The notes under the pieces were generated by a model, which worked only from the letters and a program-made list of their open reading frames with translations, had not been told where the DNA came from and ran no database searches. A DNA stretch of 57,003 nt, the filler included, from Sphacelaria rigidula (Eukaryota): the NCBI GenBank assembly GCA_964200075.2. It is 7 parts of 7 records of this genome, joined end to end, with 100 filler letters (N's around TTAATTAATTAA, not from the genome) between each part and the next. Parts side by side here need not be neighbours in the genome. Positions count along the whole stretch, not along the records: positions 40,792 to 48,847 come from CAXNAA020012469.1; 6 more parts are not named here. One strand, 5' to 3'. Below, one piece after another: positions 1,701-50,310 of the stretch (its first letter is position 1; the number at the start of each line of letters is the position of its first letter). A program made the position numbers and the translations under genes.

Positions 1701-1849
1701 CGCATCTGCGGCCCCAAGGTATTTTTGTTGCGCTTGGCGGACAACAGATTTGGACGGCATCGAGTCATCAGGTTCACACGGACCATACACAGCCACAGAG
1801 CGCACAGGAAAAGCCGGAATATTCCCCCAACGCGGAAGCAAGTCACGGC

Positions 1850-3480: not shown

Positions 3481-3599
3481 ACGTACTTGTCCACAAACTC
3501 CACTGGCACTTCGTCCGCCGACCAATGCGCCGCTGTTCCCACTTGACGCCACGGCTGCGCAGGCGAAGACGCCCCGGTAGGTTCATACGGCACCGCCTG

Positions 3600-8059: not shown

Positions 8060-8159
8060 NNNNNNNNNNNNNNNNNNNNNNNNNNNNNNNNNNNNNNNNN
8101 NNNTTAATTAATTAANNNNNNNNNNNNNNNNNNNNNNNNNNNNNNNNNNNNNNNNNNNN
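8060..8159. other. Artificial contig-joining spacer; also at 16218-16317, 24376-24475, 32534-32633, 40692-40791, 48848-48947
   Basis: N44-TTAATTAATTAA-N44 (stops in all six frames), recurring every ~8158 bp. Confidence 0.97.
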
Positions 8160-15200: not shown

Positions 15201-16317
15201 GAATCCCTCAGAGCCAACGGAGCAACAAGAAGTCTTGTGAACTCCACGAAATTGTTGGCTTGGCAAGCTGACAAACACAAGAAGACATGCGAAGAAAGAT
15301 GTACAAATATCCCAAGCACCAACGGACTAAAGGGGGTACTTCTCCCAAGCTCTTCCCGTCAGATGTTGATACCGTGCACGACACAGACAAGGAAAAAAAA
15401 TTATCATTGTCGGGCGAGGAGAGGACCACCTTTGGGCAAAAATGATGTTAATACAGAACAGACATGCCGCGAGAAGTTACCGCGTGGCTTGTGCAGTCTT
15501 GCAAGTTAACTTCCGAGCATCATCCTATCGGTCGCTTATTTCACGTTTTGAAATTCTCGACCTCCTCTTGAGTAGTCCTCGTCATGCCAACCGCTTGTGG
15601 CGGATAACTTTGTGTGCAGTAAGCTTCATGTGATTGAAAGTCACGTCGATACTGGGGTTTGCGTACATGGTTCGGCCGACTGTCTTATTCATCAGTTGTG
15701 GCAAGAGTAATACTTCCTCTGTCCCACAAGATAAGTCCGTTTGGAGGTTTCGCCGCATTTCTCGTGCGTATTTTCGGCTTTTCCTGAGCGTTTATTTGTT
15801 GTTCTTGTGAAGTTTAGGAGCAGAATTCAAAACCGAGACTTTTGCCAAGCCCCTAATAAACAAGCAGCAACACTCACGGTGATCAGAGTGTGTCGGTCGT
15901 GCACGACCGGAATCTACCGGTTGACAACCTTCTTATCGACTTTTGGAGAAACGGTTTTCTTATAGTTCCCGAGGCGTTTCGGAAAACCGCCCGAAACCGC
16001 CATCTTTCAGTCTGCCACCACCACAACACTGTTTGAGCACGCAGCAGTCCGTACATACCGGATTCGGGGGTATACGCGCCAATCCCGGGGACAAAATCAT
16101 GTTGTCCCCGGGTCCGGAGGGTCTTCTTGTTCTCACACCTGTTCCCAACACCTCGAAACACACTACCGTGGGTCTGAGCATCGAAAAAAACGTTCTTCAT
16201 ACCCCCCGTATCGTACANNNNNNNNNNNNNNNNNNNNNNNNNNNNNNNNNNNNNNNNNNNNTTAATTAATTAANNNNNNNNNNNNNNNNNNNNNNNNNNN
16301 NNNNNNNNNNNNNNNNN

Positions 16318-17182: not shown

Positions 17183-17525
17183 GGTCGCCCCGGTGGCTCA
17201 GTTGGTAACCTCGAGACCTTCTGACGCGTGGGTCGTGAGTTCGAATCTCGGAGCGATCTGGGATTTTTTCTCACACAACGCCCAACAGTGGAGAGCGACT
17301 ACTGTATGTCGTCGGTACACAAAACTCGACTTAATGGTCGACGAGGGAGAGGGACTGCTGAACCCCTCTCGCGATAGAAAATACAGGCAAGCACCGCAGA
17401 AGGAAGGTGGAGAACTAAAAACGAACAAAATTAAGAAAAAAAATGTGTCGGTGCTCCTCCTGTGTGACCCCGGCTGGTGCGCCCACACATACCGAAGGGT
17501 GTAGACCGGCGTCCAGAACAAATGG
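17183..17525 (+). mobile_element. tRNA-derived SINE (second copy at 52287-52620)
   Basis: A-box TGGCTCAGTTGG and B-box GTTCGAATC, then a ~260-bp body shared with the 52.3-kb copy. Confidence 0.85.
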
Positions 17526-17597
17526 GACGAAAACACAGGGTGAGAGATCGGGTCGGTTAAATGTGCATCGAAAAATATACATGCTTGGCGTTCTCAC

Positions 17598-19070
17598 CTT
17601 GCCTTTCATCCGCGAAGCACTGTCAGGATTCGCGAAGGGGTTGAACTTTGCCGCCTCCGATGCGGGCACCGCCCGACCTGCCGTCACCACCGTGGTACCA
17701 ATCGCAGTAGTCCCCTCTGAGATCTTGTGCTGCAACGCCGTATCGTACGAAACCTTACCCTCCGACGAAATGTCCTGCGCTATCGTATCTATTGATAATT
17801 TTGTGGGAGAAAGAGGAAGAACCGCATCGAGCAGTGGTTGCGCTAGTGCTGCTCGCGATACAGCACCTGAAACAGTAGCCGCTGGAGGAGCACTCCTTTG
17901 TTCGGACACATCGGAACTCGACTGACCAGCTGTGGCGTTTCTCGGCTTCTCCAAAGTATCCTGCTGTTGTTTGGTTGCTTCGCGTCTACACTCTGCTATC
18001 GGCAATATTGCCGGCGTCGGCAGCGACGGCAGCGCTGACGGCCAAGCATCACACGATGAAGGTGCGCATGGGCATGTTGCAGTAGCCGGTACCGGCGAAG
18101 ATGATTGTGGTGGTGACGAACCCAACATTCCTTCGGAGACGGGGTGTTGGGGCCCCTGGACGGGGGAAGTGGGCGGTGAAACGCCGGGAAACAGCTGCCG
18201 AAGTCTGGCTGAGTTGGTGGTGTCACCAAACGAGCTATTACTTGCACCGGCGGTTGATTGGAAAGTGTTGCCGGCAAGGGAATATGTGGACATTTGGAGC
18301 GAGTCCATCGTCCCTAGAAGAGACGAAGACCAGCTGTTGGTGCTGAAATTATGACTGCCCTCGAGCACAGTAGAAGACTCGGTGTGAGCACCGTCGGGCA
18401 ATGAAACTGTTACCTCCGGGGAAACCGTCCGCCCCTGCGACACAGTAAAAGCATTTCCGACACCGTCACCATCACCAACACCGCCACCGTCAACACCACC
18501 GCTGAGACCAGAGAATGAGAATTCCGCACGAGTCGTTGAGCACTGAGCTGGTGATGATGTCATCGTCATCGGTGTAAGGCATTTCAGATCCCAATCTTCC
18601 TCCGCACGTTGGCTACTCATTTTCCCGCAGCCTGCCATCCCCAGCTCGCCCAGACGTCCACTCCCCCCAATCTCACCCACGTACCCTGCTCTGCTGCAGT
18701 CTCCGCCAATTGTAGTAATAGCATGACTCGTGGGTGTATTCACCTCGTCGAAAGAATCGAACGGGTTGCTGCTATCCTTCGTCGGTTCTGGAGGCACCTG
18801 GATCTTGTTTTCCTCCCACACCAATGACGGTGCTCGAGGGCTTGAGTTGCTATTACTGCCAAACGGCACTGCGTCGATCCTGATTTCTTCCGAAGCGATC
18901 GCACCTGGTGTATTTTCCTCGACGCTCCCGCGATGGGCTTCACCGTGGTCTTCATCATCGTCGCTAGACGAATCGAAAGGGTTGCCTTCCCGTGCCCCAA
19001 ACGCCGCGGCCTGAGTAGTAGTCACGAGAGAGGAGAGAGACGTGGGGCCTGATAGGTCGGGATACATCAT
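17598..19070 (-). CDS. Large S/T/P-rich exon of an unknown multi-exon gene with NPF motifs
   Basis: ~490-codon open frame ending at donor AAG|GTGAGA (17598); three NPF motifs. The 5' boundary is uncertain. Confidence 0.65.
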
Positions 19071-19399
19071 TTTCGGGAGAAGTCACAACCGGCAATAACG
19101 TCGATCGCTCTTGGCATTTACTCCAATAGCTCCATCTCTTTCGCAATATGTGCCTGTATGAGGCACAATCAAACAACATGGGGGAAGAGTTCGGCAGACG
19201 GAATGTTCCAGGGGAAGGGCGACCGGAGTTCGTTTTGCCAACGTGAAGACGTGATGGAGCTAATATTGCCACCCCTTCTGCCGGAGACGGCGTAGTGCGA
19301 GAAACAAGATGAAGCGGGGTCTAACTCGCCGCGTGTAGCTACGGATATAACATCGCGGCATGTTGTGTTCACTGCGAGGTCAACGTTTTCGAGCAAAGT

Positions 19400-24318: not shown

Positions 24319-24572
24319 CGGTCACCCCCCTACCTCTAATCCATTTTGACCTCACCCACACCCTCCCCCCGCCCCNNNNNNNNNNNNNNNNNNNNNNNNN
24401 NNNNNNNNNNNNNNNNNNNTTAATTAATTAANNNNNNNNNNNNNNNNNNNNNNNNNNNNNNNNNNNNNNNNNNNNCCTATCGTAGGATGACTCACATGCT
24501 CTCCAAAAAACGTCAACCTCAAGGGGCAGCGAATTCTCCGCTAATTGAGCATGAAAATGTCCCATCATCCAA

Positions 24573-25484
24573 TGTCACTTTTGCCCAAGATCATGGCTAC
24601 GTCCTGCAGTCACATCATATCACACTAGCCTCCAATGGGTAAAGCAATTGCAGGAGAACGCAGTGAAACGAGGTTGCTTTACCCACACATTCCATTTCCC
24701 CACACCACAGAAAAAATAAATAAATAAATAAGGTACCAAAATAAAAAGAAAGTGTGAGACACGTTAAGGGGGGAGTACTGTGACGGTGACTTAGAGGGCG
24801 ACACGATATATGGCAAAAAAAGAACAATCCGAAGGGTGTGAAAAACACAAGAATCGACAACCTTCGGAAGAGTAGCGCCAGAAGCTGCGAAATATCCGGG
24901 AATCTAGGACAAATCCACCATAAAAAACAACACTTAAGCAGCAAAAAAAACAAGCCGCTAGTCTATCCGCTACAAAATCTTGATATAAAGCTTGACTGCT
25001 ATCATGCGAAGGGGAAATCATGTCCCAATAGACGTTCAGTTCCGCTGTCAGAGTTTGTTAAGCAGCCCGCCAAGGCGTTTCACAGTACCGGGGAATCACG
25101 AACGATCGTACACTTCGTTCATCAGTAGAACGCGACGGTGTTGAATGCTCCAGCGGGAAAAAAAAATCGCTGAGCGAAAGACACCGGAAACCAAAATCAA
25201 CATGCAGCCGTGAGGCAACATGATGCACCAGCGTGACGATGAAGGGCGGCCCATCGAATTGAAAAGGTGCCCATATCGTCCCACAAAGTGTCAACGAATA
25301 ACACATAACCGTAGGAGATAAATCCAAGGCGGTTAATCCGATGCGTTCGTCGTGAACCACGGTAAGTATACAGAAAGAGGGGCCGATGCGGTCCGCTCTT
25401 AGATACATGCCCGTTCAGACGAGAAAATCTGTTGTCACTTTTGCCCAAGATCATGGCTACGTCCTGCAGTCACATCATATCACA
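24573..25484 (+). repeat. Identical 52-bp direct repeats (24573-24624, 25433-25484)
   Basis: tgtcacttttgcccaagatcatggctacgtcctgcagtcacatcatatcaca occurs twice. Confidence 0.85.
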
Positions 25485-25549
25485 TAAGTTCATTTGTATC
25501 TCGATTGATGGGTAATAATAGGGTGCTTATTATCATCTTAGTACATGTA

Positions 25550-26712
25550 GACTATACCTTCCTGCGAAGCTGTGTCTTCCAAATCAACGGGAGCGTGGAG
25601 CCATTGCGCTTCGAGCTATTTGGGGGATTCTGGCGCTCACTTGACGGGTCAACTGAGTCTATCGGTGCAGATTGTAGAGGTGTTGGAGCGGTTCCTCCTG
25701 GGTGTGCCGCTGCGCATTCCGTTTTCGCTCGGGGCTCGGCAGGCCGCCACCGCGTCGGGTCAGCTTTTTACGTCACAGAGCCGCTGCAGCTGACTTTTAC
25801 GACTCCCTCGGGGCCGGCGCCGTTGCCTCCGATCTCGTTTTCGATCATCCCGGGGTCGAATGGTGTCATTCTTCTGGGGTTGCCGACGCTTCAGGATCTT
25901 GGAGTCGACCCGTATGTGCGGTTGTGGGACTCCATGAAGACACGGATGTCTCCGCCTGGTCACACTTGGAGACGCCCGCTTTTTTGGGCAGTCGTCGCGT
26001 GAGCTTGTCGGTGGATGCTTTCCAGGAGGCTGGAGGGCAGGTGACCAAAGAGCGGGATGCGGCGGTGGCACGCTTGGTAGAGCGCGGCCCGGAGATGTTC
26101 ATGATTCCGACGGAAGAGGAGTCCGCTCGGAAGGTCGTGCTGGAGGAGAGCGTGACGAATGCTGTGGCGAAAGGCCTCAGCTTCTCAAAAGCGGAGCACC
26201 TGCGCGGCATATTGCATCGCGGCGTCAACGCGTTCGTCGTGCGCTGCGGGGTCCCCTGCGCGCGTGGAGCCCATGCGCGTTCAGCTCAAACCTGGGGCGT
26301 CCGCGGTGAAGATGAAGCCGCGGCGGCACGATCCAATGAAGTCGAGTTGGTTGGCGTTGTGTGCGGCGGCTCTTTTGGCTCTCAGGTTGGTGTTATGAAA
26401 CTTGCAGGCGGAGTGGTCTTGCCCAGATATGGCGTTTGCGAAAAAGGCTACATTGTGGACGGAGGACAGGCTGCAGGCGTGGGCGGCAGCGAAGGATCTG
26501 GTGGCTCATGCCGTGACGCTATTCCATCCTCGTCCTGATTGTCACGTGTTTATGTTTCCGGATGCATCTGAGTGCCATTGGGGTAGTTTGGACGTGCAGG
26601 TGCCTAAAGTTGCTATGCAAAGACGCTTGCCGGTTGAGGATATGACGCATGAACCGCTGGCTTTCCTCAGTGATAATTTCAAGAGTTCGCAGTTGCGTTG
26701 GACCACAATTGA
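25550..26712 (+). mobile_element. Gypsy pol fragment of the same family as 319-5868 (protease, RT N-terminus, RNase H start)
   Basis: DSGAH..., GVILLGLPTLQDLGVDP, RVQLKPGASAVK, VFMFPDASECHWG...HEPLAFLS. Confidence 0.9.
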
Positions 26713-29126: not shown

Positions 29127-31450
29127 TCATTGTACCCTAGCGTTGGGTTCCGCCGTTGTGGCGAGGCTTCCCCAAGACTTATGATCCGTATAAATCACAA
29201 ACGAAATGCCATACGAATACTGACGCAGACGTCGCACGCCCCAAACAACTACGCCGGTCTCTTGTTCCATGACAGACCAATCCTGTTCATTTCGAAAAGT
29301 GATTCGACTCAGATATACAATGGGATGAATAGTAGCATCGTTTTGCTCCTGTTCTAAAGTGCCGCCTAACCCAATTTTGGAAGAATCTGTGTGAAGACCG
29401 AAAGGGCGGGAACCATGCTCCGCGGCCGAACAGTCGGGGAAGACGAGAATCGGCGGGAGAGAAAGGGTGTCAAGAAGACGGCGGGCGATTTTTTCCATTT
29501 CCGATGTAAACACGAACTTTACCTTTTTTTTGAGGAGGGTGGTGAGGAGTTTGAGCATTTGGGTAAGGTGTGGCAAGTACTGTCTGTAGTAGCTTAAACC
29601 TCTCAACAAGGAATTCAGTTGAGAAATATCTCGTGACATGGGCATATCGGCGAGTGCGGCGATGTTGTTGAGGTTTGGGCTACGACCTCCGGGGGGTGAT
29701 GCATTGGCCCAGGAACTCAATCTTCGTGGCGTCAATGCGGAGTTTGGAGGGGGCGGGTTTCAATTTATGTTGTTCAAGTCGACCAAAGAAAGATGACAAT
29801 TTTTCTACGTGTTCGGCCGATGTGCAATCGTGGCACATCGCATCATCAAGGTACATATGGCATTTGGGCAAACCATCAGTAACACGGAACATCACACATG
29901 TTGAAACGCATCTGGGGCTCCGGCGGCACCTTGTGGTGTAACCAGCCACCCGTACAAACCTGATGGCGTGCGAAACGCCGTCAGTTCAATGGAATTCAGA
30001 CCCATCACGAGTTGATGGTAGCCAGACTGCCTGTCAAAGTTCGAAAATCTTATCCTTGTCAAGAGTGTCATTAATTTAATCAATCCATGGCAGAGGCAGC
30101 CGGACGATTTCGGTGACAGCGTTCAATCGTTTATAATTGACCGTCAGTCTGATTTTGCCATTCCACTTGCGGACGACTACTAGAGGCGAGGCCCACGGAG
30201 ACGTCGAGTGCCGAATTCAACCGGCGGATAAGTAACCATCGAGAATTACTTAGATCTTATCCGTTAAGAGAGGGTTCGTACGGTACGGACGCACAGCGAC
30301 AGGTGGAGTGCCATCAGGGATTTTGATTTTGAACAGTGTCGTGGTACATCGACCTAAATCCAAGGGTGCAGTAGAAATCGTCCAGCATATCTAATCGAGA
30401 TAGATCTCAGCCTATCGATTACAGTGGGTGTCTAACCATCGCCGGATAGATCGAAAAGAATATGCCGCAGATGAGGGGGGATGTCATCCGACAACTTTTG
30501 GTCATGGGCGCGTTGTTCTAGGTAAAATCTGACCAGTAATGCAGTTGGGGATTCAGGTTCAGGCGCATCTGGTGGATTTGTCACCACCATGGGGTCAGGC
30601 ATTTGTAGCGGAGGGTGGCCCGTGGGTTTCGGGGCGTCGGTTGAAAAGTTGATTCCCTCAGGGGGGCACACATCTGACGGGGCATTTCGTAGGAGAGGCT
30701 CTTGAGCATAACCCAACAACTGTCCGTTGAGTATATCGAAACATGCAGGGGACGTGAGGTAAATAGTCTGCCGGCCTTCATGAACAAATACTTCAGTTTT
30801 TTCGAACGGACCAACCTGTGATAAGTCAGGTTTGAGCAATTCGACCGAATAATGTCCTGTGAGAGCGGGTGATCCATTGCGTCTCACGAGGTTCACATGG
30901 TTTAGTTGGGGCTCCCGAGAAAGCACGACGATAGGTTCACCAACATAATACAGACAGAAAGCATTACCTGTTTATGTAGGGTTTTCTTTGAAGGCATGAA
31001 CCCTCGAATCAGTGTCGAAGTGACCCAGTGGCAGTTTGCCTGTGATTGGACGGTTCGGAACCGGTTTGTCCGACGTATATGTGTGTGGAAAAACGAGGCC
31101 AACTATCTCGACCCAACAAAACATCAAAAGACATGGAACCATCCGGCACAATTAGTGCCCATACGAATAACCGAGCTGTGGGAGTAGTGTCCTGGAAGAA
31201 TTTTACACTGAGTCTCACCGATTGATTAACCGTAAGGGATGTGGAGGAGCCAAACCCATCAAAACCACGAGGGTGCACGGTGGAAAGACGAGGCTTGTCC
31301 GCCGCGCCCGCGTTGGTCGTATGTTGTCAGTAGCCGACTGTAATGAACGCTTGAGACGAACCTGAATCTGGCAGTGCAAAAGCTATCAAATGACAGTTTG
31401 CACGCGCTCCACTGGGTAAACCTATCGTGGTCGTGGAAGAGGCACCATCC
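29127..31450 (-). mobile_element. Second, distinct decayed Ty3/Gypsy pol (protease, RT, RNase H)
   Basis: ALPDSGSSQAFI, FDVLLGRD; SGYHQL..TAFRTPSGLY..PQG; MYLDD; LHTDSSKIGLGGTLEQ..IVYLSR..IYTDHKS. Confidence 0.88.
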
Positions 31451-32849
31451 ATAGTTGCAGTACCACTGACGAGATCGGGCCCGAATCTGGGTAAGATATC
31501 TGACACATCTTGCTTTGCGCTTTGAACGTTGGTGCTAAAATACACTCGTTGAAGATCCTTTGGAACAAGATTTTGGCGAAAGGATGGTGCGTGCATGGAG
31601 TGTCAGTGTTCGTACCTGAAATATGTTTCTCATATGTCGAGGGTTGAATCTCATATGCTGCAACGGAGAGGCGGTGCCGGGGAAGGGCAGTTGTTGTTGT
31701 GATTGGACCCCACAACTGGTTTGTGCGTGATGTTTCACCCTTATTGGCCAAAAGACGGAGCGGATCGTCATTGTGCAAAGTGGTATTAATTATGTTATCC
31801 AGCTTGGTCAGAACGGGGGACGATTCATCGGGGCACGGTGTCGAATTCGATACGCCAACCAACTCAATACCGTCAAGGCTTAGGGCGAACTTGTGCGGTT
31901 TTGGAGACGATTCGTCAGGACGCGGGGTTGGTAGAGCTGTGCTGTTCAACCCGCCGTTTATTGTAGGGACCAACGTGGGCGAGTAAGGAGACGAGTCGTC
32001 TTGCGTAACACTTCGTCTGCCTGGTGACGAACACACGATTGAGGTGTCTTGATAACTAGGATGCCGACGTCCATGAGTCGGCGAAGTCTCTGTCCCTACA
32101 GACGGCGACGCTTAATCGGAAATGGGTTCTAACGGAGTGCACGAGGGGTGGTCAGGGAGCAGTAACGATATGTTCGAAACCTGGGGAGTACGGGCCTGTT
32201 CCACTCTAAGCTTTCGATCTGTTTGAGCCCACACGCAATCTCTTCCTTGGAGTTCACGTGCGCTTGCTACATCAGGGTTATCTACATGATCATCTAGAGG
32301 AACCCGCCTAGGGTGACGCGTATAGCGCACGAAAGGGTCGGCGGCTCCAGGAGCTATTGAAATGAGATCTCGGACAGTCGAACCTAGGTCACGCTCTTGG
32401 CGCACAATCTGAGTCGCTGTCACTCCGGATTCCATTCCAACCCGCTGAGCGACGGAAAGCATGGAACAACAAATTGTGCGAATTGAGGTTGAACTCCGAG
32501 ATAAGGTTCAAGCCTAAAACAGTGCTTTCCCCANNNNNNNNNNNNNNNNNNNNNNNNNNNNNNNNNNNNNNNNNNNNTTAATTAATTAANNNNNNNNNNN
32601 NNNNNNNNNNNNNNNNNNNNNNNNNNNNNNNNNTACACATCCTCTGTGCCGGACACCGCCTGCCTTCAGGTCGGCGGGGGGGGGGGGGGGGGGGGGGGGG
32701 CATTGTACGTGAAAACCCAACACGAAAATACCGAAATTACCTAAGCTAGAGCTCATCATTAATATGGTCCTCCAATTACTGCTACCGCTTTATCTCCTTT
32801 CAGAAAACCGACCGTTGTACGTATGAGTACACGGCACGTGGACACTTGC

Positions 32850-35800: not shown

Positions 35801-38800
35801 CCGCAAAGAAGTGTACTTACTCGTTCTGAGTCCACATGTGCCGATTAAAGTGAGTGCTTCCGTTTTGTTCACCGTGAGTACCTCTATCTTGTGACCCTGT
35901 AATAGTGGGATCCTATGGGTCGCCAGCTAATGTTGGACAATCGATTGCTCGAACAGCCAACTAATGCGAATGTTTTGGTGATCCCACTGCGATCGCATGA
36001 ATGGTCCTGCAGCATTGATATTCCGAGAGTTTTTGCAGTCAGCGAGTCAGTGATCCTATAGCAACCAATGAACATACAGCTACGAGGGAAGGTGGGTTCG
36101 TAGGCCCTTCGTACGTTTTGTTGGCGCAGGTCGAACCGGTTGCACGGGCGGATCGCGTATCGACCGAGCCGGAAACATTGGTACGGTGGTCACTGATCTG
36201 AAGGGAGACCGATTGGTATCTCACTCAACACTGAGAACAATTCGACGACCTTGAGCGCAACATGAGCGCAAGTGAAACCGGCCTTGACCGAAAAAAGGAT
36301 AAGAAGTAAACAAGAATAGTTTTATTTCCCAAGGAGAAACATGTTTAAATCGCTGACGAGTACAAACTGTCCGTTTTCTTACCAATCGTTGAGATCCATG
36401 CAAGCAGCGACGATGGGTCAAAATGAGCGCATGGACAACAGGTACCTAGGGCGATAAAACAATGATGGAAAAAATACAAACCCAGAAATGTAATCAAGTA
36501 AGTATTCAATTTTCTGGTCATCGTCAAAATGAAATTAGGTTTGGCTCATGAGCGGCCATTGCAGTAAAATGAAAGCAGCATATGCGAGGAAAAGTCAAAC
36601 GCCCAATCGGTGCAATTGGACGTTGGCCATCCTCAACACACGGCTATGAGCAGATTGGTTGCTAGTCTTTTTATATTCGATGATGCTTTCAGCACACAGC
36701 GGCCACGTCAATATACCGAACCACAACCCAGAACCCACCAGAGAGCAGGCCAGCCGACATACAAAACGCACTGCAAAGCCACGATAACGCGTAAGTCAGC
36801 GAGAACAGGGGCTAGGGAAACACGCGAGGACCGACTGAAAAAGCAATGACATCATGTAGTACACCGCTGGAGGTGATAGGGTACGCAAGCAGCGGCATGA
36901 TGGCCATCTACTGTTGTAACAGCTGCCAGCAAAGCACCCTGCGCAGAAGTGAGCATTCGTTTTTGCCGCTGGCCGTGCGACGGGCGCCCTATATTTGCCT
37001 TTACGATAATCAAGTGGCGAACTCCGTCATAGATATCCAATCATGAGAGCTGCGCGTTGACTACCCATGCGCACCATCCTGGCCCATGTAGCCAGTACAA
37101 ATCAGTAGCGATACACGATATGACTACGGATATAGTGTTTGCGGTGAGCTCGGTGTTCCCCACACATGCCGTTGCTGCACTGGGATCAATCCCGTGAGCC
37201 GCTCGTGGCTGTGAAGGGGGGTGCGCTACCAGCTTAAAATTTTGCTGCTGTTGCAGTACGGCACGTTCCGGTGCTTGTCAATTTTTTCTTCCAGCAGGTG
37301 ACGGGAATCCACTCCTGCAAAAGTACAGGTCGTACTGTGTGTAGCGCGACCTTGACAAGTGCATACTGAGTGTCACGCCGAGCATTGTCTTTCTTGGCGA
37401 CTCCTAGCGGTAGCGTTCATTTTTCACCAACAAATACTCTCGAACAGGCCTTTTGATTGTTGATGGGCCACGGTGGCGAGAAGGGTTGAGCTATTTCGGA
37501 AGCATACACGAAGTAGACCAGTTCTCCAAGTTATACCCTCAGACATCTGGCTTCGCCTATCCTCACGATAAAAACAAGAGAGTATTCATGTATTGAACCC
37601 AGGTTGACTTGCCCACTCCTCGTATCACCCCTTGAGTTCTTCATCGAGGAGAGTGGTATTTTGTTTTTCACCGAGTACGCAAGGGTGCCCCTTCCTTTTG
37701 TCAGCACCATCTACGAATTGCTTCAACTCGTGAAGACAAGCAACATGGCGCGTTCATGTAGGAAGGCGCTCCATGTGTATCTCGAATGCTTTGCCGCTGT
37801 GCGTGTGTCATGGGTTGCGGGTTGGACACATCTCCGTCTGTTATTTCTCTGTTTACTAAATGAGCGTGAAAAGTCACAGTACGGGTGAGAGCAAACACCG
37901 GTGATCTCTCGAACGATGGTTGATGTGACGGTTCACACATAGCGTACCGCTGCTCCCGCCCCGCCCCGCCGCTACTACGATTGCGTATTCTCACTGGCTT
38001 GAGAGATTCGCTTGCCTTTCAGCAGCCTCGACGGAATCGAACACCATCACCCAGCTCGGCCCATGTACGGCGTTGATCTTGTGACTGACGCCTTCCCAGT
38101 ACACTCTGCGGAGGGAGTGAAAGGAAGGCGGAAGACGGCAGAAGCACTCCAATATAGGAGTGCGCTCGAAGTGCACTCGAAAGGTTAGTTGCAACTCTGC
38201 TGGGCCACGTGCTCTCCAGTTTCCTCCTCTCCCCGCCCTACTCTCCTTCTCTTTTCGCTTCATTAAAACTGGCAACATTCCTTCCCGAGTGTGTGTTTGT
38301 CTGTTGGGGGAGGGGGGGGTAGGGGCGGGTGCTAACGCCCCCCCCCCACGCACGTCCACACACTCCGGAAGACCACCATACACGAACCCAAACCCCCACC
38401 CATCCACGAAGAGANNNNNNNNNTTTGTCGGGGGGGGGGGGGGGGGGTGGGGGGGGGTGCTAACCCCCCCCCCCCCGAAGATACAAACGACTAAGGCAAG
38501 CAACAATTAAGTACGCCCCCCCCCCCCCCGGAGGTATCGCAATTTGATAAAAAATCAACCCGCAAAACGAACAGGATTGAGTGTTTCTTTGCGAGGGGGG
38601 CATTATTGCTTCTCTTTTTGCCTGAATTTATGCGTTGATTTGTTTCATCATAAGACTAGTCATCACGAAAGGAAACGAAGAGTGTTCGGTAGTATGAAGC
38701 CCTCAGGTCTGTGAGTCCATCGGATGAGCTAGTACTCAACTAATTTTGCCGGAGAAACAGAATACTCGTGCTGTCGGCGGTTAAACGATCATTTAGCAGA

Positions 38801-40435: not shown

Positions 40436-42333
40436 CTGCAGGTTCATTCTGCTGGTGACATGGCCGATGATGGAGTGATGTGTTGGGTTGTCGCGCATCA
40501 AGTGCTATCCGACAAATCTCGTCGTGTTCACAGAAAGATGGGCGTGTCAAAAAGCAAGAGAACGTAAACACCCGCTAAAAATAAAAGTGAAGATATAAAG
40601 ACAGCAAGAGACAAAACAAACGCAAAAAACTTGACAATGATGGGAGATGAAACAGAAGCAGAATAACAAAAAGAGAGAAAAAAGGGGGGGGNNNNNNNNN
40701 NNNNNNNNNNNNNNNNNNNNNNNNNNNNNNNNNNNTTAATTAATTAANNNNNNNNNNNNNNNNNNNNNNNNNNNNNNNNNNNNNNNNNNNNCTACACGTG
40801 AAGGCTTCACTTTGTTTACTGTGTGTGTGTTACTGCTGTGTACTGCCTGCACTCCGGTACTATGCGTGAAGGCTTCACCTTGTTTGAAAACATCCGTGAC
40901 GGGCAGCTGATTAAAAAAATGTGCGTCCCCGTAGGTGGATATACGTTTCGCGCATCTATTCAAGTCTGGGAGTGGTCGGTGTTGAGGTGATTTTGTTCCT
41001 CCGGAAAGCTCGCTCCACATCAGTAGATGGACAATCTTGTTGCACTAGCGACTGTCCTCCCTTTGTCTGTACCAGTCAGAAAGCACAGGCTCCGAGCTGC
41101 TCTTGATCGTCGACGGTCCGCGTTTCGACCGTGCGACAACACCCCGGCACCTTACGAGTGATAGCCACCGTGCTGGACAGCGCTAAAACACACGAATCGG
41201 CACCGGGTGATTTAGACCCACCCCCAGCCGCGTACATCTACTGGCTGTAAAGATGCTGCTGATACTGCTGCTGTTGCTTCTTCTCGTGCGGAACGCGATT
41301 AGAACGGCGCGTGATTTCTCGTGATGCTGCAGAGCATGTGTGTTGTTTTCTGTTGAGTGTAGTACTCCGCCGTATCTCTCAACGTGCAGATCTGGGTTAC
41401 AAGTTTTTGCATTTGAATACAGTCCGTCACGAGCGACCAGAAAACACGGCATAACTGCCTTGTCCGGTGTTGAGAGTAGTATTCTGCAGTTCATACACCA
41501 CTGCAGAGTTGTCTGGTTTTGAGTGTACCACCCTGTAGTCAAGATAATGGGGTCATCTGTTGACCAGTTTTCCGGAAGGTTCTGCTGGGGTTTTTTCAAG
41601 TATTCCGAAACAAACGAGAGTGTTTTCTGTCACAGAAATCTATAGCCGAATCTAGAATAGCCTGAGACAACAACCAATTTAAAAATTGGAATGCTCATGG
41701 ACTGTGGTAGCTGGTGCAAGCGTAGTATTCTCCCGATACGAGTTGTGTATGTAGTCCTAAAATGTCGCTGTTCCTGCACGTACAGCCTGGAGTATCTCTG
41801 TAGCCCTGCTTCGGTATACCTCCACGGGGGCGACGAAATAGCTTTAGTGTCCGTACATAAATGTGAGACACAGCGTGCGCTGTGGTTTGGGATACACATG
41901 CAGGAGTGAAATGAACGAGTGTGACAAGCTGAAGGCCTCTCTCGGTCTCCCTGCCTTTATCGTGGTGCTCGAGACTTTTATCTCGAACATCATGCTGCAT
42001 CATCCAGAGAAAGCTGGACATAATTGCTGCATGAATCGTACGTTAACAGCGGTGTCACGGTTCATTCGGTGGCCGACTTCCACAGTGCATGTACCTTGGG
42101 GCAGCTCTTGACACATGGTGATCACACCCGTACAAATCAAGAGTCCAAGACACCCTGGGTGGAACATAGCATTGGGATATCAGGACCCCACAACCTTACG
42201 AGCTCCTCCGCATCGAGAGAGCAGACCAATCCGTACCAGCCCCTTTCCGTTCGAGAGGGCGGGTCGTGCAAACTGGCGGCCAGCATACTTCACGCGTAGT
42301 CTAAACAAGATCAGTACAAAACAGAATCATCCG

Positions 42334-45300
42334 TCATCTGTCCGATGCCTCCTCTAACTCCAACTTCACGCTTGAACCCTCAGACGCCTCCCCTGATTCC
42401 ACACCAACAAACCCGCCAACAGACCCACATACAACTGCCGGCGAAACATATAGAGGTCCCGCACTCACACCACAACTGCTGCTGCTGGAGCTACTTCGAC
42501 CACCTGCACCGCTCAAACCCCTCAAAGGGTCAGTATGCTTGCTGCACTCTCCCACTCCAGCGTCACTGTGTATAGGAGAAGGAGCTGCCGCCTCTACCTT
42601 CATTCCTGCTCCTACCCTCGGCACGGAAGACTCCTCACGATCAGCCCCTGAGGGTAGCTGGCCCGAAAGCAGCAGTGGTGTTACATCACTACGCCTGGCA
42701 ATAGGGTACACACTAGCTTCAACACCAACAATGTCGCTTGTACCAGAACTCCAGCATGGTGCACGCTTGCGTTTTGTTCCTCGCACGCCAGCAGCGCTTC
42801 CTCCACCGCCATCGGATATGCTACCGGTGGAGGTGGCCTTGCCAGTGCTGAGCTCTCCAGTGTCGTATACCGTAGCTGCGTCATGCGCAGCGGGATGCTG
42901 TCGGAACAACTTTGCCTTATCTAGGACGCCAATCTCGAGAGCATGCGATATTGAGCATTCCTCTCTGCTAGACTTGCATCTCAGCGGATCCACCACTCCC
43001 GCCATCGCAAGCTGAGGGCAGAACTCCGCCTTCTCGATTGCCGCAACACTATACGACGGTCTTTCAGAGCAGCTCTCATAGCCGCACTTCTCCTTCACCA
43101 GCCTCGCCATTCCTGCCCCGGCATGCCGAGAGAAAAACTCCGCCTTCTTGCTTCCCGCTACACCACTAGACAGCTGCCTGGAGCAGCCCTCGTCGCCGCA
43201 CGTCTTTTTTACCACATCCATCATTCCAGCTCTGGAATGCTGAGAGCAGAACTCCGCCTTCTTACTCCCCGCTACACCATACGACGGCTTCTTCCAGCAG
43301 CCCTGGTCGCCGCATCTCTTTGTGACCACATTCACCATTCCCACCCTGGCATGCTGAGAGCAGAACTCCGCCTTCTCGCCACCCGTTACACCATACGACG
43401 GCTTCTTGCAGCAGCCCTTGTCGCCGCACCTCTTTTTCAACACATTCACCATTCCAGCCCTGGAATGCTGAGGGCAGAACTCCGCCTTCTCGCTTCCCGC
43501 TACACCATACGACGGCATCTTGCAGCAACTCTTATCGTCGCACTTCTTGTACACCAGATTCACCATTTCCGCCCTAGCATGCCGAGAGCAAAACTCCGCC
43601 TTCTTGCTTCCCGCCACACCATATGACGGCCTTTTGGAGCAGCCCTCGTGGCCGCACGTCCTGTTCACCACATCCACCATTCCAGCCCTGGAATGCTGAG
43701 AGCAGAACTCCGCCTTCTTACTCCCCGCTACACCATACGACGGCTTCTTGCAGCAGCCCTGGTCGCCGCATTTCTTGCTCAACACGTTCACCATTGCCGC
43801 CCTGGCATGCTTCAAGCAGAACTCCGCCTTCTTGCTTCCCGCTACACCATACGACGGCATCTTGGAGCAGCCCTTATTGTCGCACTTCTTGTACACCAGA
43901 TCCACCATTCCAGCCCTAGCATGCCGAGAGCAAAACTCCGCCTTCTTGCTTCCCGCCACACCATACGACGGCCTTTTGGAGCAGCCCTCGTGGCCGCACG
44001 TCCTGTTCACCACATCCACCATTCCAGCCCTGGAATGCTGAGAGCAGAATTCCGCCTTCTTACTCCCCGCTACACCATACGACGGCTTCTTGCAGCAGCC
44101 CTGGTCGCCGCATCTCTTTTTTACCACATCCACCATTCCAGCCCTGGAATGCTGAGAGCAGAACTCCGCCTTCTTGCTTCCCGCTACACCATACGACGGC
44201 ATCTTGGAGCAGCCCTTGTCGCCGCACCTCTTCTTCAACACATTCACCATTCCAGCCCTGGCATGCTGGGAGCAGAACTCTGCCTTCTTGCTTCCCGCTA
44301 CACCATACGACGGCATCTTGCAGCAACTCTTATCGTCGCACTTCTTGTACACCAGATTCACCATTTCCGCTCTCGCATGCCGAGAGCAGAACTCCGCCTT
44401 CTTGCTTCCCGCCACACCATACGACGGCATCTTGGAGCAGCCCTTGTCGCCGCACTTCTTGCTCAACACGTTCACTATTCCAGCCCTGGCATGCTGAGAG
44501 CAGAACTCCACCTTCCTGCTTCCCGCTACACCATACGACGGCTTCTTCCAGCAGCCCTGGTCGCCGCATTTCTTGCTCAACACGTTCACCATTGCCGCCC
44601 TGGCATGCTTCAAGCAGAACTCCGCCTTCTTGCTTCCCGTTACACCATACAACGGTCTTTTGGAGCAGCCCCCGTCGCCGCATTTCTTGCCACACACATT
44701 CACCATTCCCGCCATGGCATGCTGAGAGCAAAACTCTACCTTCTTGCTTCCCGCTACACCGAACGATGGATGCTTGAGGCAGCCGTCGTCGCCGCATCTC
44801 TTCTTCGACACGTTCACCATTCCAGCCTTCGCATGCTGAGAGCAGAACTCTGCCTTCTTGCTCCCCGCTACACCATACGACTGCCGCGTGGAACAGCCCT
44901 CGTCGGCGCACGTCCTGTTCATCACACCCACCATTCCCGCCCTCGCATGCTGAGAGCAGAACTCCGCCTTCTTGCTCCCCGCTACACCATACGACCGCCG
45001 CCTGGAACAGCCCTCGTGGTAGCACCTCGTCTGCGACACAATCACCATTCCGGTCCTCGCATGCTGAGAGCAGTACTCTGCCTTCTTGCTTCCCGCTACA
45101 CCATACGATGGATGCTTGGAGCAGCCCTCGTCGCCGCATCTCTTCTTCGACACGTTCACCATTCCAGCCCTGGCATGCTGAGAGCAGAACTCCGCCTTCT
45201 TGCTTCCCGGCGCACCATGCGACGGCTGCGTGGAGCAGCCCTCGTCACCGCACTTCTTGCCCGACACATTCACCATTCCCGCCCTCGCATGCTGGGAGCA

Positions 45301-45378
45301 GAATTCCGCCTTGTAGCCCGGTAAAGCGTACGATGGCCATTTCGAGCAGTCCTCGTTGATGCACACATTTTTCCACAT
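42334..45378 (-). CDS. EsV-1-7 cysteine-rich repeat protein (~21 tandem 38-aa C-x4-C-x16-C-x2-H units), ~1014 aa
   Basis: Uninterrupted ORF; unit ~KKCGDEGCSKRPSYGVAGSKKAEFCSQHARAGMVNVxx matches the EsV-1-7 motif. ATG at 45378 lies downstream of a pyrimidine-rich acceptor CTTTTCCTCCTGCAG (~45473), so the true start may differ. Confidence 0.9.
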   Translation of the reverse strand: MWKNVCINEDCSKWPSYALPGYKAEFCSQHARAGMVNVSGKKCGDEGCSTQPSHGAPGSKKAEFCSQHARAGMVNVSKKRCGDEGCSKHPSYGVAGSKKAEYCSQHARTGMVIVSQTRCYHEGCSRRRSYGVAGSKKAEFCSQHARAGMVGVMNRTCADEGCSTRQSYGVAGSKKAEFCSQHAKAGMVNVSKKRCGDDGCLKHPSFGVAGSKKVEFCSQHAMAGMVNVCGKKCGDGGCSKRPLYGVTGSKKAEFCLKHARAAMVNVLSKKCGDQGCWKKPSYGVAGSRKVEFCSQHARAGIVNVLSKKCGDKGCSKMPSYGVAGSKKAEFCSRHARAEMVNLVYKKCDDKSCCKMPSYGVAGSKKAEFCSQHARAGMVNVLKKRCGDKGCSKMPSYGVAGSKKAEFCSQHSRAGMVDVVKKRCGDQGCCKKPSYGVAGSKKAEFCSQHSRAGMVDVVNRTCGHEGCSKRPSYGVAGSKKAEFCSRHARAGMVDLVYKKCDNKGCSKMPSYGVAGSKKAEFCLKHARAAMVNVLSKKCGDQGCCKKPSYGVAGSKKAEFCSQHSRAGMVDVVNRTCGHEGCSKRPSYGVAGSKKAEFCSRHARAEMVNLVYKKCDDKSCCKMPSYGVAGSEKAEFCPQHSRAGMVNVLKKRCGDKGCCKKPSYGVTGGEKAEFCSQHARVGMVNVVTKRCGDQGCWKKPSYGVAGSKKAEFCSQHSRAGMMDVVKKTCGDEGCSRQLSSGVAGSKKAEFFSRHAGAGMARLVKEKCGYESCSERPSYSVAAIEKAEFCPQLAMAGVVDPLRCKSSREECSISHALEIGVLDKAKLFRQHPAAHDAATVYDTGELSTGKATSTGSISDGGGGSAAGVRGTKRKRAPCWSSGTSDIVGVEASVYPIARRSDVTPLLLSGQLPSGADREESSVPRVGAGMKVEAAAPSPIHSDAGVGECSKHTDPLRGLSGAGGRSSSSSSSCGVSAGPLYVSPAVVCGSVGGFVGVESGEASEGSSVKLELEEASDR
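42979..45369 (-). repeat. Coding tandem array with a 114-bp unit
   Basis: gcagaactccgccttcttgcttcccgctacaccatacgacgg, or close variants, recurs with a 114-bp period. Confidence 0.95.
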
Positions 45379-47184
45379 TCTGGCGATCCGCTTTGTCGCG
45401 TGGTGTTTGTGATGAGAAGTAACTGTTCGCGGTAACACAATTGGCAAGACGCCGGGGGCTCCAAATGTCAGCTGCAGGAGGAAAAGCGATGAAAACGCAC
45501 TATCGTCGCACATCAACGGGAAGAACAGGAGCAACCTGCACCATTTAAATGACACTTGACATAAACTGATCGCAATGACTGCAGCCCTGGTATCCAAGGT
45601 AATTCAAGCGAATGGGACTTCCTCACCAGTACGGTAGTACGGATCTGAACTACATATAGCATCGATATGGTACAAGAGGCGAACGAAAGCGGACAACCTT
45701 AAAGGTATGATCCCAACTCGTGATTCACCGGGCATGATACATGCAGTGTTACATAATTCATGGCTTGTAAAACACCCGCCAACGTTTGGGAAGTTGCTCT
45801 ACACTGGCAGTATATCTGACAACGTTGTGGAAGATTAGTTATACCAACGAAGTCAGGAAAAAACCACATGAACTCGAAGATACCGGACAAGGTTCCAAAC
45901 TACTTTGATCCTGTTCTATTTTACTGCTAGAAATACGACTAGGATAGGGATGCCTTTTGGTCTCAACAGCGGTGCACGCGACCGTCGAAAGCAAACTATA
46001 TGGATTTTGATAACGAATTTGGTCTGTGAACACACGCGAAAAAGTGTACATATCTGTCGAATCGCAAAACACGCGCACGTGTGCTCTCATGATCTCTTTT
46101 GTCATATCGGATACCGTCGGAATCAAGTGTAATGTATTGTCCTAGTTGCCACTTCAACCACAAGTGAGTTTAGGTGTTGGGTTACCTGATCTTTGCTTTA
46201 GTCACTTAAACCTCAGAATTTCCGGCTCGTATCGCGTCTACATGGTGTGCATGGTAGTACATGCTTGTTGTCGCCAGGGTCAGAGTGTCATGTCAGGAAA
46301 GCGCTGAAAGTTGAGCGGGGCACAAAGCTGTTGCTAGCCACAACGAGGCTTCCTGTACAGTGCATTTCACATCTGTTGGATGAGTATGCCACGACTGTAC
46401 ACGATTGGTGTAGACATTCTAGATGACGCTGACATGGCCATAATCGTCGCCGTAGCGATATATCCCTTTACAGCCCTTCTGGAAACCGGCAGACGCCTAA
46501 TGAGGGCGAAATATTCGAAACGCACCGATATCTGATCAAATCTTGGGAAACGTCTTCTGGACTATCAGAATATCATCATTGTTGGACGCACCTCTTAGCC
46601 TGATGAGGTGTCGTCCCGCCAGTGTCGGACACACGTCCTACGGTAAATATGTACCATTTTAACTGCATCCAACACATGCATCCTAGAATGAACACGCATT
46701 TCACCTATACCACGCAAATACTGCTACACAAACGGGTATGCTACGGTAGTTCGGCACAAACATCTTGAAGGGAACAGGTATTGTACATATGTGCGGCACA
46801 TGCGCTTATGTTGTGTTTAGCCCAACGCGTGGTGTACTGCCGTGGTCGTGGTTCGAGGTTAACTGTAAATGCTTCGTGCAAGTTGGCGAAGAAAGTGCCT
46901 AACGGATGGAAAGGGCCTCCATTCATCTGCGGTTACTGTGACATCTGATTCCATGCCATTTTTCTGTGACATGTTGTCTTCTCCATAATCTCACGAGCTG
47001 GTCCAGCTGACAGTGATTTTTGAACGTATCCTGGCGATGCGGTCTTTCGAAGCGTTAGGCGCCGAAATTTTGACACAACCTTTCTAACGTCGGACGAGTC
47101 ACTACTCGTCGAAACGAGTGCACTAGTGGGTGTTTTCTGAAAACACAACGAGCATGACGTCCCCGAGTCATTACTTTCTTTCAT

Positions 47185-47272
47185 CACAACGAGCGATGAC
47201 TCGAGTGCTTGCCCCACTAAATATTTTTCCACGACGAGCAATGACTCGAGTGCTTGTCCTACTATATTTTCC
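47185..47272 (+). repeat. Short imperfect tandem duplication (~45 bp x2)
   Basis: ac(a/g)acgagc(g/a)atgactcgagtgcttg(c/t)cc(c/t)acta...tattttt?cc occurs twice. Confidence 0.7.
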
Positions 47273-48399
47273 CGTGTTCGCCCTATTAACCCTTTCGGGA
47301 CCGACCCCCTACTAACACGGCGTTGACCATGTGTTCGTGGAATAATGAAATAAAAGGGAGTGACCTGCCTAGTCACGGCGAGGCGAAATTTATCGACCAG
47401 ATCCGAACGACCAGCGCGGGGACGGTTGCCGAGTGTGATGTCAATGCAAAGATCGTGTGGGGGTCCTGTCCTTGGCCCAGATAAGCCTTCCCAGGTTTCT
47501 AAAACCAGGACGCTCGGAGCATGGCTCATCGTATTACTTGCATTCCCAATACTGTAGCGTTCCCGGGGTTTCCCAGGAGTTTCCTTCGGTCGCCAGCCTA
47601 TACTAACATGCAATAATTACAATAACACGGGGTGGAGTGGGAACATCGGGAAGGAGTGTACATGCCGCAATGTGGTCATTTTCACGAGGCACTGAACCTA
47701 GGTGGACTGTGGAAAGACAAAAGGAGCTACCGTCATGAATTCTGCTCATCTCTCTGCCGACGACTTGCAGAACCCTGTTAGCATATATGTAGTGGGCGGG
47801 CATAGACAAGCTGTATATAGGCAGCTGATCTCCGTCGCTGAGAACTGCCGAGAACAAGCAAGGAAGTATGCAGTGGCAGCTGCTGCTGCAGTCGGAGAGG
47901 CGTATTGCACCGTACTGTACTGTATGTATATGCGCCGCAACGCCCATACCCTTCGTGGACAATTCGTCGCATGCAACAAAGACGTGAATGGCGGCCCACC
48001 CCGACCACAAAGGGCTGTGTGGCAAGGTGATGGGAACAATGATATCATCCGAAGCCACAAGTAGTGGTCGGCCCGCCGGTCGCCGCATCCTGTTGAAAGC
48101 TATCTGCGGCGAAATATACTGCTTGCTAAATCAGATGTACACTACCTAATGCGCACCCTGCACTTGAAAATAGATTGGACGGAACTTTCGGACTTCCTCA
48201 TGACCCTGCGGTTACATACGCGGATTTTCAGCAACATGCCACTGTTTCGTGCAGACGTCAGACACACCATTCCCAACCAGGCACGTTGATCGTTCCGGAG
48301 GCCCGGTCCCGAAGGGGGTAATTTTTCCCACAACAGAATCGATTTCAAGTACGGCTGACAGTCCCATGTGCTCCTTGTTTGCGCAGTTTTCGTCGAAAT

Positions 48400-48535
48400 C
48401 GGCGCCACAGGAGCTGATTTGGGGTCTGCAAAGGCCGCACTTTGCCAAGGAAATGTTATGTGCCGCCCTTGTCCGAGAGTTTCGGTTCGCGATGGGTTGG
48501 GGTTAGAGTTTTGGGGGTAGGGGTAGGGGTAGCGA
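48400..48535 (-). repeat. Copy of the 6.3/51.8-kb repeat family with CCTA(A)CC-like head
   Basis: Minus strand reads ctacccctacccct...ctaacccc...actctcggacaagggcgg...ccttggcaaagtgcg. Confidence 0.55.
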
Positions 48536-50310
48536 TACTTGTGAAATGTGTCGACCATGAACATTTGTAGCCCCAACTCCGGTAAACTAGCCTACTACTA
48601 TGACACATCGTGGTAACCGGCAACTGCGTGCTCGTCTTCAAATCCACGTAGCACTCCGATCCGACAAGGGGTAATCAAACGAAATACCAAACGGTACAGT
48701 AGTCCTGCCTTTCTGTGCAGCGTTCAGTCATAATGCATATCCATTGCTTGAACCAACCATCGATGATGTGACCACCGCCCGTTCCTAACGAAACGAGCCG
48801 AATGTGTGGGCGCCATGGTTGGAGTTGGCGCGTAGACCCACTGGCACNNNNNNNNNNNNNNNNNNNNNNNNNNNNNNNNNNNNNNNNNNNNTTAATTAAT
48901 TAANNNNNNNNNNNNNNNNNNNNNNNNNNNNNNNNNNNNNNNNNNNNAATGAGTACGCCCCCCCCCTCTCCCTCCCCCCTCCCGATAGTCACCTTCTTTT
49001 TGGTATCGCACATTAGGATCAGTACCCCCACACCGCATCGACTGTCGTCCAGCAAACTCAGCCAAGCAGGCTCTAGCTGCACTCCATCTTCACAAGACGA
49101 TCGACCTCGCATCCCTACGAAGCCGGGACGGAAAACCGCGGGTTTTCGCTAGACCAGGATCGCAGTGAAGGGTAGGCGTATCGGGGAAAATATGTATGGT
49201 TTTATAGATACGTTGAGACCGCGGACTCGTCCCGAGGAAGGGGAGGGGTTGAAAGTGAGAAAATGAAAATAAGTCAGAGACAGCTTCACCACAGCGTTTG
49301 AATACGTTGTATCCACAGGAAAAAAACCTCGCCCCCATATCCGAATGCGTTTTTTGTGCAATGCACGCGCAAATCTCGCCACAGCGCCCGTATACAAGGT
49401 ACGATCATAGGCCAACAATATCACCATGACGTTCAAATACGTTGCACAGCATGGGCATGTGCCAAAAAGAAAAGATCCCACGAAGGTCGAAGCAAGTTGG
49501 CAGCGCATGAGCGAAAACAGTGTCAGAAGCGTCCAAAAATCGCCATAAAGGACGAATACGTTGTACGCGCATCGGCCTATAATCTTGCCGCAACGTCCAG
49601 AAACGGCTACACGGGAGTGAGCAAATTTTATCTCCACGTCCGAACACGCTGTGTGTGCGTATGAGTGAGACTGATCCCAACATACCACACACGTTGATTG
49701 ATTGATGGATCGTCGCATCTTCATCGATCCCTCAGGGATCCAGCCGTCGTCACACTAGTCACATGATGGACCTACCCGAGATGAAAAGCAATAACGGAAA
49801 GAATCGCCGACGAAAACAGGTGCTGACCGGAAAATCTCGCGACATCGTCCAAACACGTTGTATGCGCATGGGTCAGCCCTATATCCCTTCGAAAATTACG
49901 TAGTTTTAATCTTTCGTCAAATGAATACCGAAGTTTACCCTATCTGTAAGAAAGATTCCTTACTAGACGTGTCTCGAACTCGAGGTTCTCGCTGTATGTA
50001 ACAGTAATTTACGGTTGTAGAGTATATTTTCCCTCGTTTTGCATACGAGTACTCGTACATGCTTTTGATCTTTATCGAGAGAGGCAAACATGAAATGAAA
50101 AAAAAAAACTTTTTTCTCCGCCGTACGTACAGTTACCGTTTTCATTTCATTTTTTCTTTCGTGACGGCATGAGACGTCATCTCACTTGTGAAGTGGAACC
50201 CCTCTCCCCCCCCCCTCCCCCTTCTGCCGGTTATCTTACTATTGTACATGATGTCGCATTATAATTTTAACTACTGTACCCGTACATACGTGCTCGTTTT
50301 ACGTCGCCAG

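Follow-up and report, generated by a model that had tools for sequence, protein, structure and literature searches.

We analysed a window of 57,003 nucleotides from the brown alga Sphacelaria rigidula (assembly GCA_964200075.2), composed of joined parts of seven records, and studied within it a gene that encodes a long tandem array of EsV-1-7 units. The gene lies in the part at positions 40,792-48,847, which comes from CAXNAA020012469.1. An open reading frame (ORF) scan of the window placed its open frame at 42334..45597 on the minus strand, and the gene body at 42334..45375 runs uninterrupted over 1013 codons and a stop, starting from an ATG (MWKNVC...) at 45375 that lies four codons upstream of Cys1 of unit 1. 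This nuclear brown-algal gene, apparently of one exon, encodes a stand-alone EsV-1-7 (PF19114) protein. An alternative in-frame ATG is found upstream at 45513, and the stop-to-stop frame extends to 45603; at most about 78 codons in frame precede unit 1. As read from the sequence, translation from 45513 would add a hydrophobic extension of 46 residues, and two short upstream ORFs precede this second ATG.

Parts of the gene stretch were found in nine sequencing runs of three studies, none of the nine recorded as RNA. Runs X1 and X3 covered 30 of 30 bins, and runs X5 and X7, which belong to one study and are RNA by guess, covered 24 of 30 bins each, nearly all within ~42094-45621, their contigs being collinear with genomic sequence over the stop codon as well as ahead of the ATG. 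The contigs cannot show expression level, and give a weak hint of an unspliced transcript of the array gene. Joints seen inside the array have short sides (20-26 letters) and were rejected, since repeats or paralogues matching one another account for them best. Word depth there was very high, which indicates many paralogues sharing words.

Repeat architecture and variable block

The array itself occupies 42973..45363 on the minus strand and consists of 21 tandem EsV-1-7 units of 38 amino acids (114 nt), with the Cys-Cys-Cys-His ligand set complete in 19 of the 21. Tandem Repeats Finder reported a period of 114 nt, 20.4 copies, 82% matches and 0% indels (score 2795) at 42991-45312. The protein scored 980.5 bits (E=0) in 21 stretches against Pfam PF19114 EsV_1_7_cys, above the gathering cut-off of 25 by which membership of this family is decided, and our own hidden Markov model (HMM) of the unit, run over all six frames of the window, gave 21 matches, all 21 in the frame of the array and none elsewhere. 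Both profiles recover the 21-unit EsV-1-7 array that an initial annotation of this DNA had described, and the repeat lies well outside what chance would produce. A second Pfam match, to Phe_ZIP, was set aside; no stretch of it passes alone, and we read it as a chance 'FC..HA' likeness to chain 1q2h. ORFs on the plus strand within the array (e.g. 43648-45324, 558 aa) were likewise rejected, as they are open merely since the repeat has no stops there and all 21 profile matches lie on the minus strand.

The spacing C-x4-C-x16-C-x2-H is exact in 18 of the 21 units, with x15 in unit 1. The two end units at 42973..43200 (minus strand) are degenerate in their ligand pattern, Phe replacing Cys3 in unit 20 and Leu replacing His in unit 21. 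A possible remnant of a 22nd unit (CKSSREEC...FRQH) at 42895..42978, minus strand, overlaps the linker of unit 21; it was picked up by a loose regular expression only and was called neither by Pfam nor by our unit HMM. The array is followed by a C-terminal tail (42337..42972, minus strand) in which the Pfam scan found no family. The tail is rich in Ser, Gly and Ala (90 of 217 residues, counted from aa 871), has an acidic end and carries a KRKR motif resembling a nuclear localisation signal at 42763..42774 on the minus strand (aa 942-945 of P0001).

Numbering unit positions from Cys1 and taking positions 10-32 as the core, we found the entropy maxima within the array at positions 2-4, 7-9, 33 and 35-38, in line with the earlier statement that variation is localised to the residues after Cys2, the Cys1-Cys2 loop and the linker; the 21 triplets listed after Cys2 agreed exactly with our translation. 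The variable positions form one contiguous 15-residue block, made up of linker 33-38 of unit n and knuckle 1-9 of unit n+1, and this block alternates with a conserved core of 23 residues. The core PSYGVAGSKKAEFCSQHARAGMV has 0-3 mismatches to the consensus in 16 of the 20 units from unit 2 to unit 21. The initial annotation went somewhat too far in extending the near-invariance of the scaffold to the DNA, as most unit pairs are 75-90% identical there. Mean nucleotide identity is 87.6% for the cores and 74.3% for the linker+knuckle blocks. Linkers are co-inherited with the following knuckle, e.g. VYKK-CD[DN]K, VNRT-CGHEGC and LSKK-CGDQGC, and 16 of 18 junction blocks are distinct. The array is rich in Lys and Arg, as had been noted, with 141 Lys+Arg against 63 Asp+Glu in 796 residues and a net charge of about +78; per unit the charge is +4.2 versus +2.4 in the family, and basic residues at conserved positions include Lys18, Lys19, Arg28 and Lys37. 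The region 42001-46000 has a GC content of 0.54-0.56 and a plus-strand GC skew of -0.22 to -0.26, while most other parts of the window have a GC content of ~0.45-0.52 and a skew near zero.

Array growth and selection on the units

The closest pairs of units at DNA level are 12/15 (99%), 13/16 (96%), 10/17 (95%), 9/16 (93%) and 7/14 (91%), units 15-16 being near-copies of units 12-13. Mean nucleotide identity is highest at an offset of seven units, where units 7-12 (43999..44682, minus strand) and units 14-19 (43201..43884, minus strand) are 91.8% identical compared with an all-pair mean of 82.2%. Pairing of the junction blocks is mosaic, with breakpoints within the cores, and the most diverged units are those at the edges of the array. 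Because the identity matrix, the peak at the seven-unit offset and the junction-block mosaic fit the expected pattern, we conclude that the array was built by unequal crossing-over, including one seven-unit block duplication of which units 7-12 are the first copy and units 14-19 the second. Descent accounts for most of the recurrence of the triplets SKM, CKK, SKR, CKM and WKK.

Nei-Gojobori estimates pooled over units 2-20 gave a ratio of nonsynonymous to synonymous change (dN/dS) of 0.30 for the core, 0.71 for the set of variable positions named in the initial annotation, 0.80 for the residues after Cys2, 0.86 for the knuckle loop and 0.89 for the linker. Codon site models were fitted with our own code on an IQ-TREE topology; with 38 codons and 19 units they have little power, and gene conversion among units breaks their assumption of a tree. 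The single-ratio model M0 gave an omega of 0.45, M1a placed 70% of sites at an omega of 0.21, and M2a placed 27% of sites (fast class: 2, 4, 7, 9, 12, 30, 33, 35 and 36) at an omega of 1.32. In this low-power test M2a gave no support for positive selection over M1a (likelihood-ratio statistic 1.54, p=0.46). Purifying selection acts on the core, with an omega of ~0.2-0.3, and the linker+knuckle block drifts at about the neutral rate, with an omega of ~0.7-1.3. The initial annotation had proposed a modular recognition code and held that neutral evolution of the variable sites would speak against it; near-neutral change is what these tests, of low power, returned. Recently duplicated junction blocks are 91-100% identical in nucleotide sequence and their flanking cores 90-99%. 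Synonymous divergence (dS) between units is 0.28 in the cores and 0.57 at the linker+knuckle positions, and the lower value in the cores fits gene conversion or crossover preferring cores, or constraint at nucleotide level.

A comparison between orthologues was made with ten orthologue-like pairs among the homologues described below, providing 35 aligned canonical unit pairs from other family members, not from the array itself. Differences were found at 95 of 385 variable positions, 144 of 805 core positions and 770 of 3277 residues outside the arrays, the variable positions departing from the core (p=0.007) and not from the outside residues (p=0.61). Among single positions, chosen post hoc, 4 and 9 differ in 4 of 35 comparisons each, 33 in 0 of 35 and 35 in 6 of 35, and positions 2, 3, 7, 8 and 38 in 12-14 of 35, with all compared variable positions differing between units in ~80-94% of comparisons. 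Taken over all variable positions, orthologues differ at a fraction of 0.25 and units at a fraction of 0.85. In their evolution these positions resemble residues under weak constraint, with no sign of acceleration or of special conservation.

Relatives and the predicted module

A search of 5.8 billion proteins yielded 87 homologues of 557-1773 aa, with named sources Sphacelaria, Scytosiphon, Ectocarpus, Discosporangium and Nannochloropsis. The collection held no close orthologue, the best match being 51% identical over 41% of the query, and no homologue longer than 1773 aa was found at E<=1e-10, which is weak evidence. Counted with our HMM, the array has 21 units, and the 87 homologues have 15 at most, with a median of 8; it is the longest among the 88 proteins compared. 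Most non-ligand positions are variable among 323 distinct canonical units of the homologues, and the entropy profile of the array correlates with that of the family (Spearman 0.62, p=4e-5); the family-variable positions 11, 14, 15, 17, 19, 21, 24, 28 and 29 are among those fixed in the array. Among the homologues, 78 of 87 have no other precomputed Pfam family. The nine with further families were rescanned: homologue P0037 carries Helicase-associated (HA) domains, fusions with ELO, ETF, gag, reverse transcriptase (RT) or TPR domains may be artefacts of gene models, and Tudor-like matches stayed below threshold. Of 69 homologue tails, 35 carry the motif K[KR]x[KR], compared with an expectation of 21.1 from shuffles.

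The gene is thus an unusually long further member of the known EsV-1-7 family (PF19114 / IPR043822), with which it shares the motif, the spacing, the tandem layout, the lack of other Pfam domains and the low-complexity tail, but its units are far more alike and number 21. In the accessible parts of the published accounts, the family, its brown-algal expansion, its viral link and the zinc-finger conjecture are already described; no orthogroup across brown-algal genomes is larger than that of the EsV-1-7 genes, and zinc binding by the domain is presumed, not established. According to the same accounts, the one characterised member is IMM (IMMEDIATE UPRIGHT) of Ectocarpus, which controls early development and has a unique N-terminal domain followed by five EsV-1-7 repeats, an architecture unlike the 21 repeats and the at most ~78 upstream codons found here, though the gene may have a further exon upstream. 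The accessible EsV-1-7/PF19114 literature, preprint supplements excepted, describes no ligand, structure, mechanism or recognition code, which agrees with the earlier remark that the motif has no established ligand.

Arrays like EsV-1-7 are also widespread in giant viruses. A Foldseek search of BFVD with the predicted structure matched 29 viral proteins at E<=0.001, including proteins of marseille-, pitho-, cedrat-, klosneu- and Tetraselmis viruses and the protein EsV-1-7 of EsV-1 (Q8QNQ2; E=4e-22, 49% identity over 189 columns), which is structurally alike. The viral proteins do not reach the length of the array protein, Q8QNQ2 having 378 aa. The descriptions of these matches read 'Endonuclease' in four of 29 and 'DNA primase' in one of 29, as labels only, with the architecture unconfirmed. 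Viral contigs of IMG/VR, searched with homologues P0037, P0015 and P0008, gave 15 loci (including L002-L014), and the giant-virus ORFs fetched are stand-alone arrays of 4-12 units, all ten of those scanned carrying PF19114. PHROGs gave no match for any of seven proteins, and a pattern scan of viral contigs with a five-unit query from the array found no relative.

The module was modelled with AlphaFold2 from in-register alignments for five units (27 rows) and for one unit (67 rows); residue 1 of both models is M, the first TTG having been taken as start codon. The models (m4d712232ae57 and m49adb83a5598, in one order or the other) reached a predicted local distance difference test score (pLDDT) of 83.8 and a predicted template modelling score (pTM) of 0.42 for five units, and 86.1 and 0.59 for one unit. 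Strands at Tyr12-Val14 and Met31-Asn33 and a bridge at Phe22 recur in every modelled unit, and neither model contains a helix of four or more residues. Each unit is predicted to be a self-contained module of a knuckle and three strands, because the final unit and the single-unit model both retain the last strand, and the four conserved ligand residues of each module would be compatible with one zinc site. The combination of low pTM and high pLDDT suggests that the modules are flexible beads on a string, unlike the rigid solenoids of transcription activator-like effectors (TALE) and pentatricopeptide repeat (PPR) proteins.

Among solved structures, the nearest shapes to the module are the RING, the B-box and the zinc-binding domain of nidovirus nsp13, each with a zinc knuckle followed by a small sheet; these domains hold two or three zinc ions and use more ligands to do so, and the matches are insignificant (Z <=2.8, Foldseek E >=0.7). 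The best Foldseek match in the PDB was the nsp13 zinc-binding domain for five units (E=0.7), and for one unit the nuclear-pore model 9sob_T (E=5.7) followed by nsp13 in second and third place (E=9.1-9.8). Superposition of one unit on the nsp13 domain gave a template modelling (TM) score of 0.61 and a root-mean-square deviation (rmsd) of 3.2 A over 41 columns. VIA-align against 48,161 chains gave a best Z of 2.4 for five units and 2.8 for one unit, to RING/B-box domains, with an rmsd of 2.5-3.2 A over 38-40 residues for these neighbours. A sequence search of the PDB with a 254-aa piece gave no match at E<=10, a profile of 67 units matched only 1q2h (E=0.47), and a search of the ESM Atlas with PF19114 left out gave no usable match. 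The likeness to nsp13 may reflect a distant fold relationship or a common zinc-knuckle shape. As a separate observation, Pfam CoV_NSP13_ZBD scored 41 bits, summed, on the EsV-1-7 repeats of homologue P0015.

The parallel with TALE, PPR and C2H2 arrays drawn in the initial annotation holds in outline for the layout and not for the predicted fold. Like C2H2 zinc-finger arrays (e.g. KRAB-ZFPs), the array has small tandem modules that would be flexible in the absence of ligand, short basic linkers, growth by unequal crossing-over and localised variation, with the zinc site here being predicted; the spacings differ (C-x2-4-C-x12-H-x3-5-H vs C-x4-C-x16-C-x2-H), the model shows no recognition helix, and the array protein gave no zf-C2H2 Pfam match and has neither the C2H2 spacing nor, in its models, the beta-beta-alpha fold. 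With TALE, PPR and PUF repeats it shares a unit length of 34-38 residues and near-constant repeats with few variable residues; those proteins are metal-free all-helical solenoids, whereas the array has four ligand residues per unit, its models have strands only and no helical hairpins, its inter-unit geometry is poorly defined (pTM 0.42), and no TALE, PPR or PUF Pfam match was found in it. Tandem CCCH RNA-binding fingers have a spacing of C-x7-8-C-x5-C-x3-H (typically C-x8-C-x5-C-x3-H), from which the spacing of the array also differs.

Candidate function and genomic surroundings

On balance we favour, with some reserve, the reading of the gene as an intact EsV-1-7 gene whose array grew by crossing-over, with a constrained core and flexible predicted modules, and whose product is probably a nuclear binder of polyanions. 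The protein would be a multivalent binder of DNA, RNA or chromatin, in which affinity would come from ~20 basic modules of about +4 net charge each, a sequence preference, if any, would come from the exposed knuckle/linker block, and the protein could act as a regulator in the manner proposed for IMM. We infer such binding because of the net charge of the array as a whole and of each unit, because of the KRKR motif of the tail and the excess of K[KR]x[KR] in homologue tails, because homologue P0037 carries HA domains and five BFVD matches bear the bare labels 'Endonuclease' or 'DNA primase', and because IMM is, in the accessible part of its description, a developmental regulator and a Tc1/mariner transposase with an N-terminal EsV-1-7 domain has been published (PMC12477816, accessible in part). 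The charge, the KRKR motif and this transposase fusion make the nucleic-acid binding suggested by the initial annotation plausible; its unit-by-unit code is possible and has no positive support here.

Several results weigh against a nuclear polyanion binder. Zinc and nucleic-acid binding of the array protein are themselves predicted, Foldseek gave no match in the PDB at E<=0.001 for either model, and the VIA-align neighbours at Z 2.1-2.8, RING and B-box, are mostly protein-binding domains. The ten giant-virus ORFs scanned contained no nuclease domain and no family besides PF19114 above the cut-off. Furthermore, the start codon is uncertain (45375 or 45513), the upstream one would add a hydrophobic N-terminal stretch, and runs X5 and X7 are taken as RNA by guess.

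The main rival to nucleic-acid binding is a protein-protein scaffold, in which the modules would recruit partner proteins in the way of RING, B-box, LIM and PHD-type zinc modules, and we consider it unlikely. The insignificant structural neighbours just named would suit it, as would the 78 homologues without any further precomputed Pfam family, and the nsp13 helicase also contributes its zinc-binding domain to the neighbours at Foldseek E 0.7-9.8; yet the array offers four ligands per unit compared with eight in the cross-brace of RING and B-box, the Z-scores are far under what the tool rates as meaningful, and a net charge of about +78 would be unusual for a pure protein adaptor.

Less probable still is the modular recognition code, by which each unit would read one or few bases, mainly through positions 7 and 9, plus 2-4 and 35-36. 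The alternation of a constant core with a localised variable block beside the zinc knuckle, the strongly basic array and the 16 distinct junction blocks among 18 speak for such a code; the transposase fusion (PMC12477816) is consistent with it, and so is the finding that unit-specific residues are largely kept between orthologues of other members (0.25 vs 0.85 between units, positions post hoc). However, the analyses of selection detected no positive selection (fast-class omega 1.32, p=0.46; pooled dN/dS 0.71-0.89), the variable blocks of recent duplicates are not less identical than their flanking cores, the rate of change between orthologues equals that of the non-repeat flanks, and the repeated triplets are explained by descent through duplication; in addition, the inter-unit geometry is of low confidence, and the fold does not link the module to any known base-reading finger. 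It is equally doubtful that EsV-1-7 arrays make up, besides C2H2 zinc fingers, TALE and PPR/PUF, a fourth class of proteins that read nucleic acids module by module; contacts would then be made, with as little likelihood, by the 15-residue block, mainly through positions 7, 9, 2-4, 33, 35 and 36. If arrays were such readers, a protein of 21 units would read a long target, and the expansions in brown algae and giant viruses would represent diversification of targets. The gene is a convenient test object, because its 19 intact modules are almost the same outside one short block, where most of their differences lie, and the work narrows the focus to a single variable block at the knuckle, without a detectable signature of diversifying selection, in a module without a solved counterpart.

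Most improbable is that the array is a functionless by-product, a young runaway tandem expansion drifting to a pseudogene in a transposon-rich region: the ligand losses in units 20-21, the possible remnant of a 22nd unit, the retrotransposon fragments in the window, the neutral look of the variable sites and the lack of a close orthologue would fit it, but the frame of 3 kb is intact, the core has an omega of 0.2-0.3 at a synonymous divergence of 0.28, the ligands are kept in 19 of 21 units and the guessed-RNA runs lie mainly over the gene, the last being weak evidence.

The retrotransposon remnants of the window lie at 920-3582 on the minus strand, with weak integrase matches at 923-2282 (rve and Integrase_H2C2, both below the Pfam cut-off), at 25403-26538 on the plus strand, with a protease-like stretch, and at 29127-29759 on the minus strand, where RT-RNaseH matched with 80.6 bits at 29130-29759. 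The ORFs at 2518-3582 and 25403-26538 have the protease-like stretch GVILLGLPTLQDLGVDP in common and are therefore two copies of one element family. An open frame of 555 codons at 17415-19082 on the minus strand is rich in Ser, Pro, Gly and Thr, belongs to no Pfam family and may either be coding, as an exon of a low-complexity protein, or be open by chance. The nine other ORFs of the window that were scanned gave no Pfam family, and no virus-type Pfam domains were found among them. Paired runs of 44 N are seen at 8060-8159, 16218-16317, 24376-24475, 32534-32633, 40692-40791 and 48848-48947, recurring every ~8158 bases and resembling masking more than an assembly gap; those on either side of 40,792-48,847 fall on the filler between joined parts. 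A single run of 9 N lies at 38415-38423.

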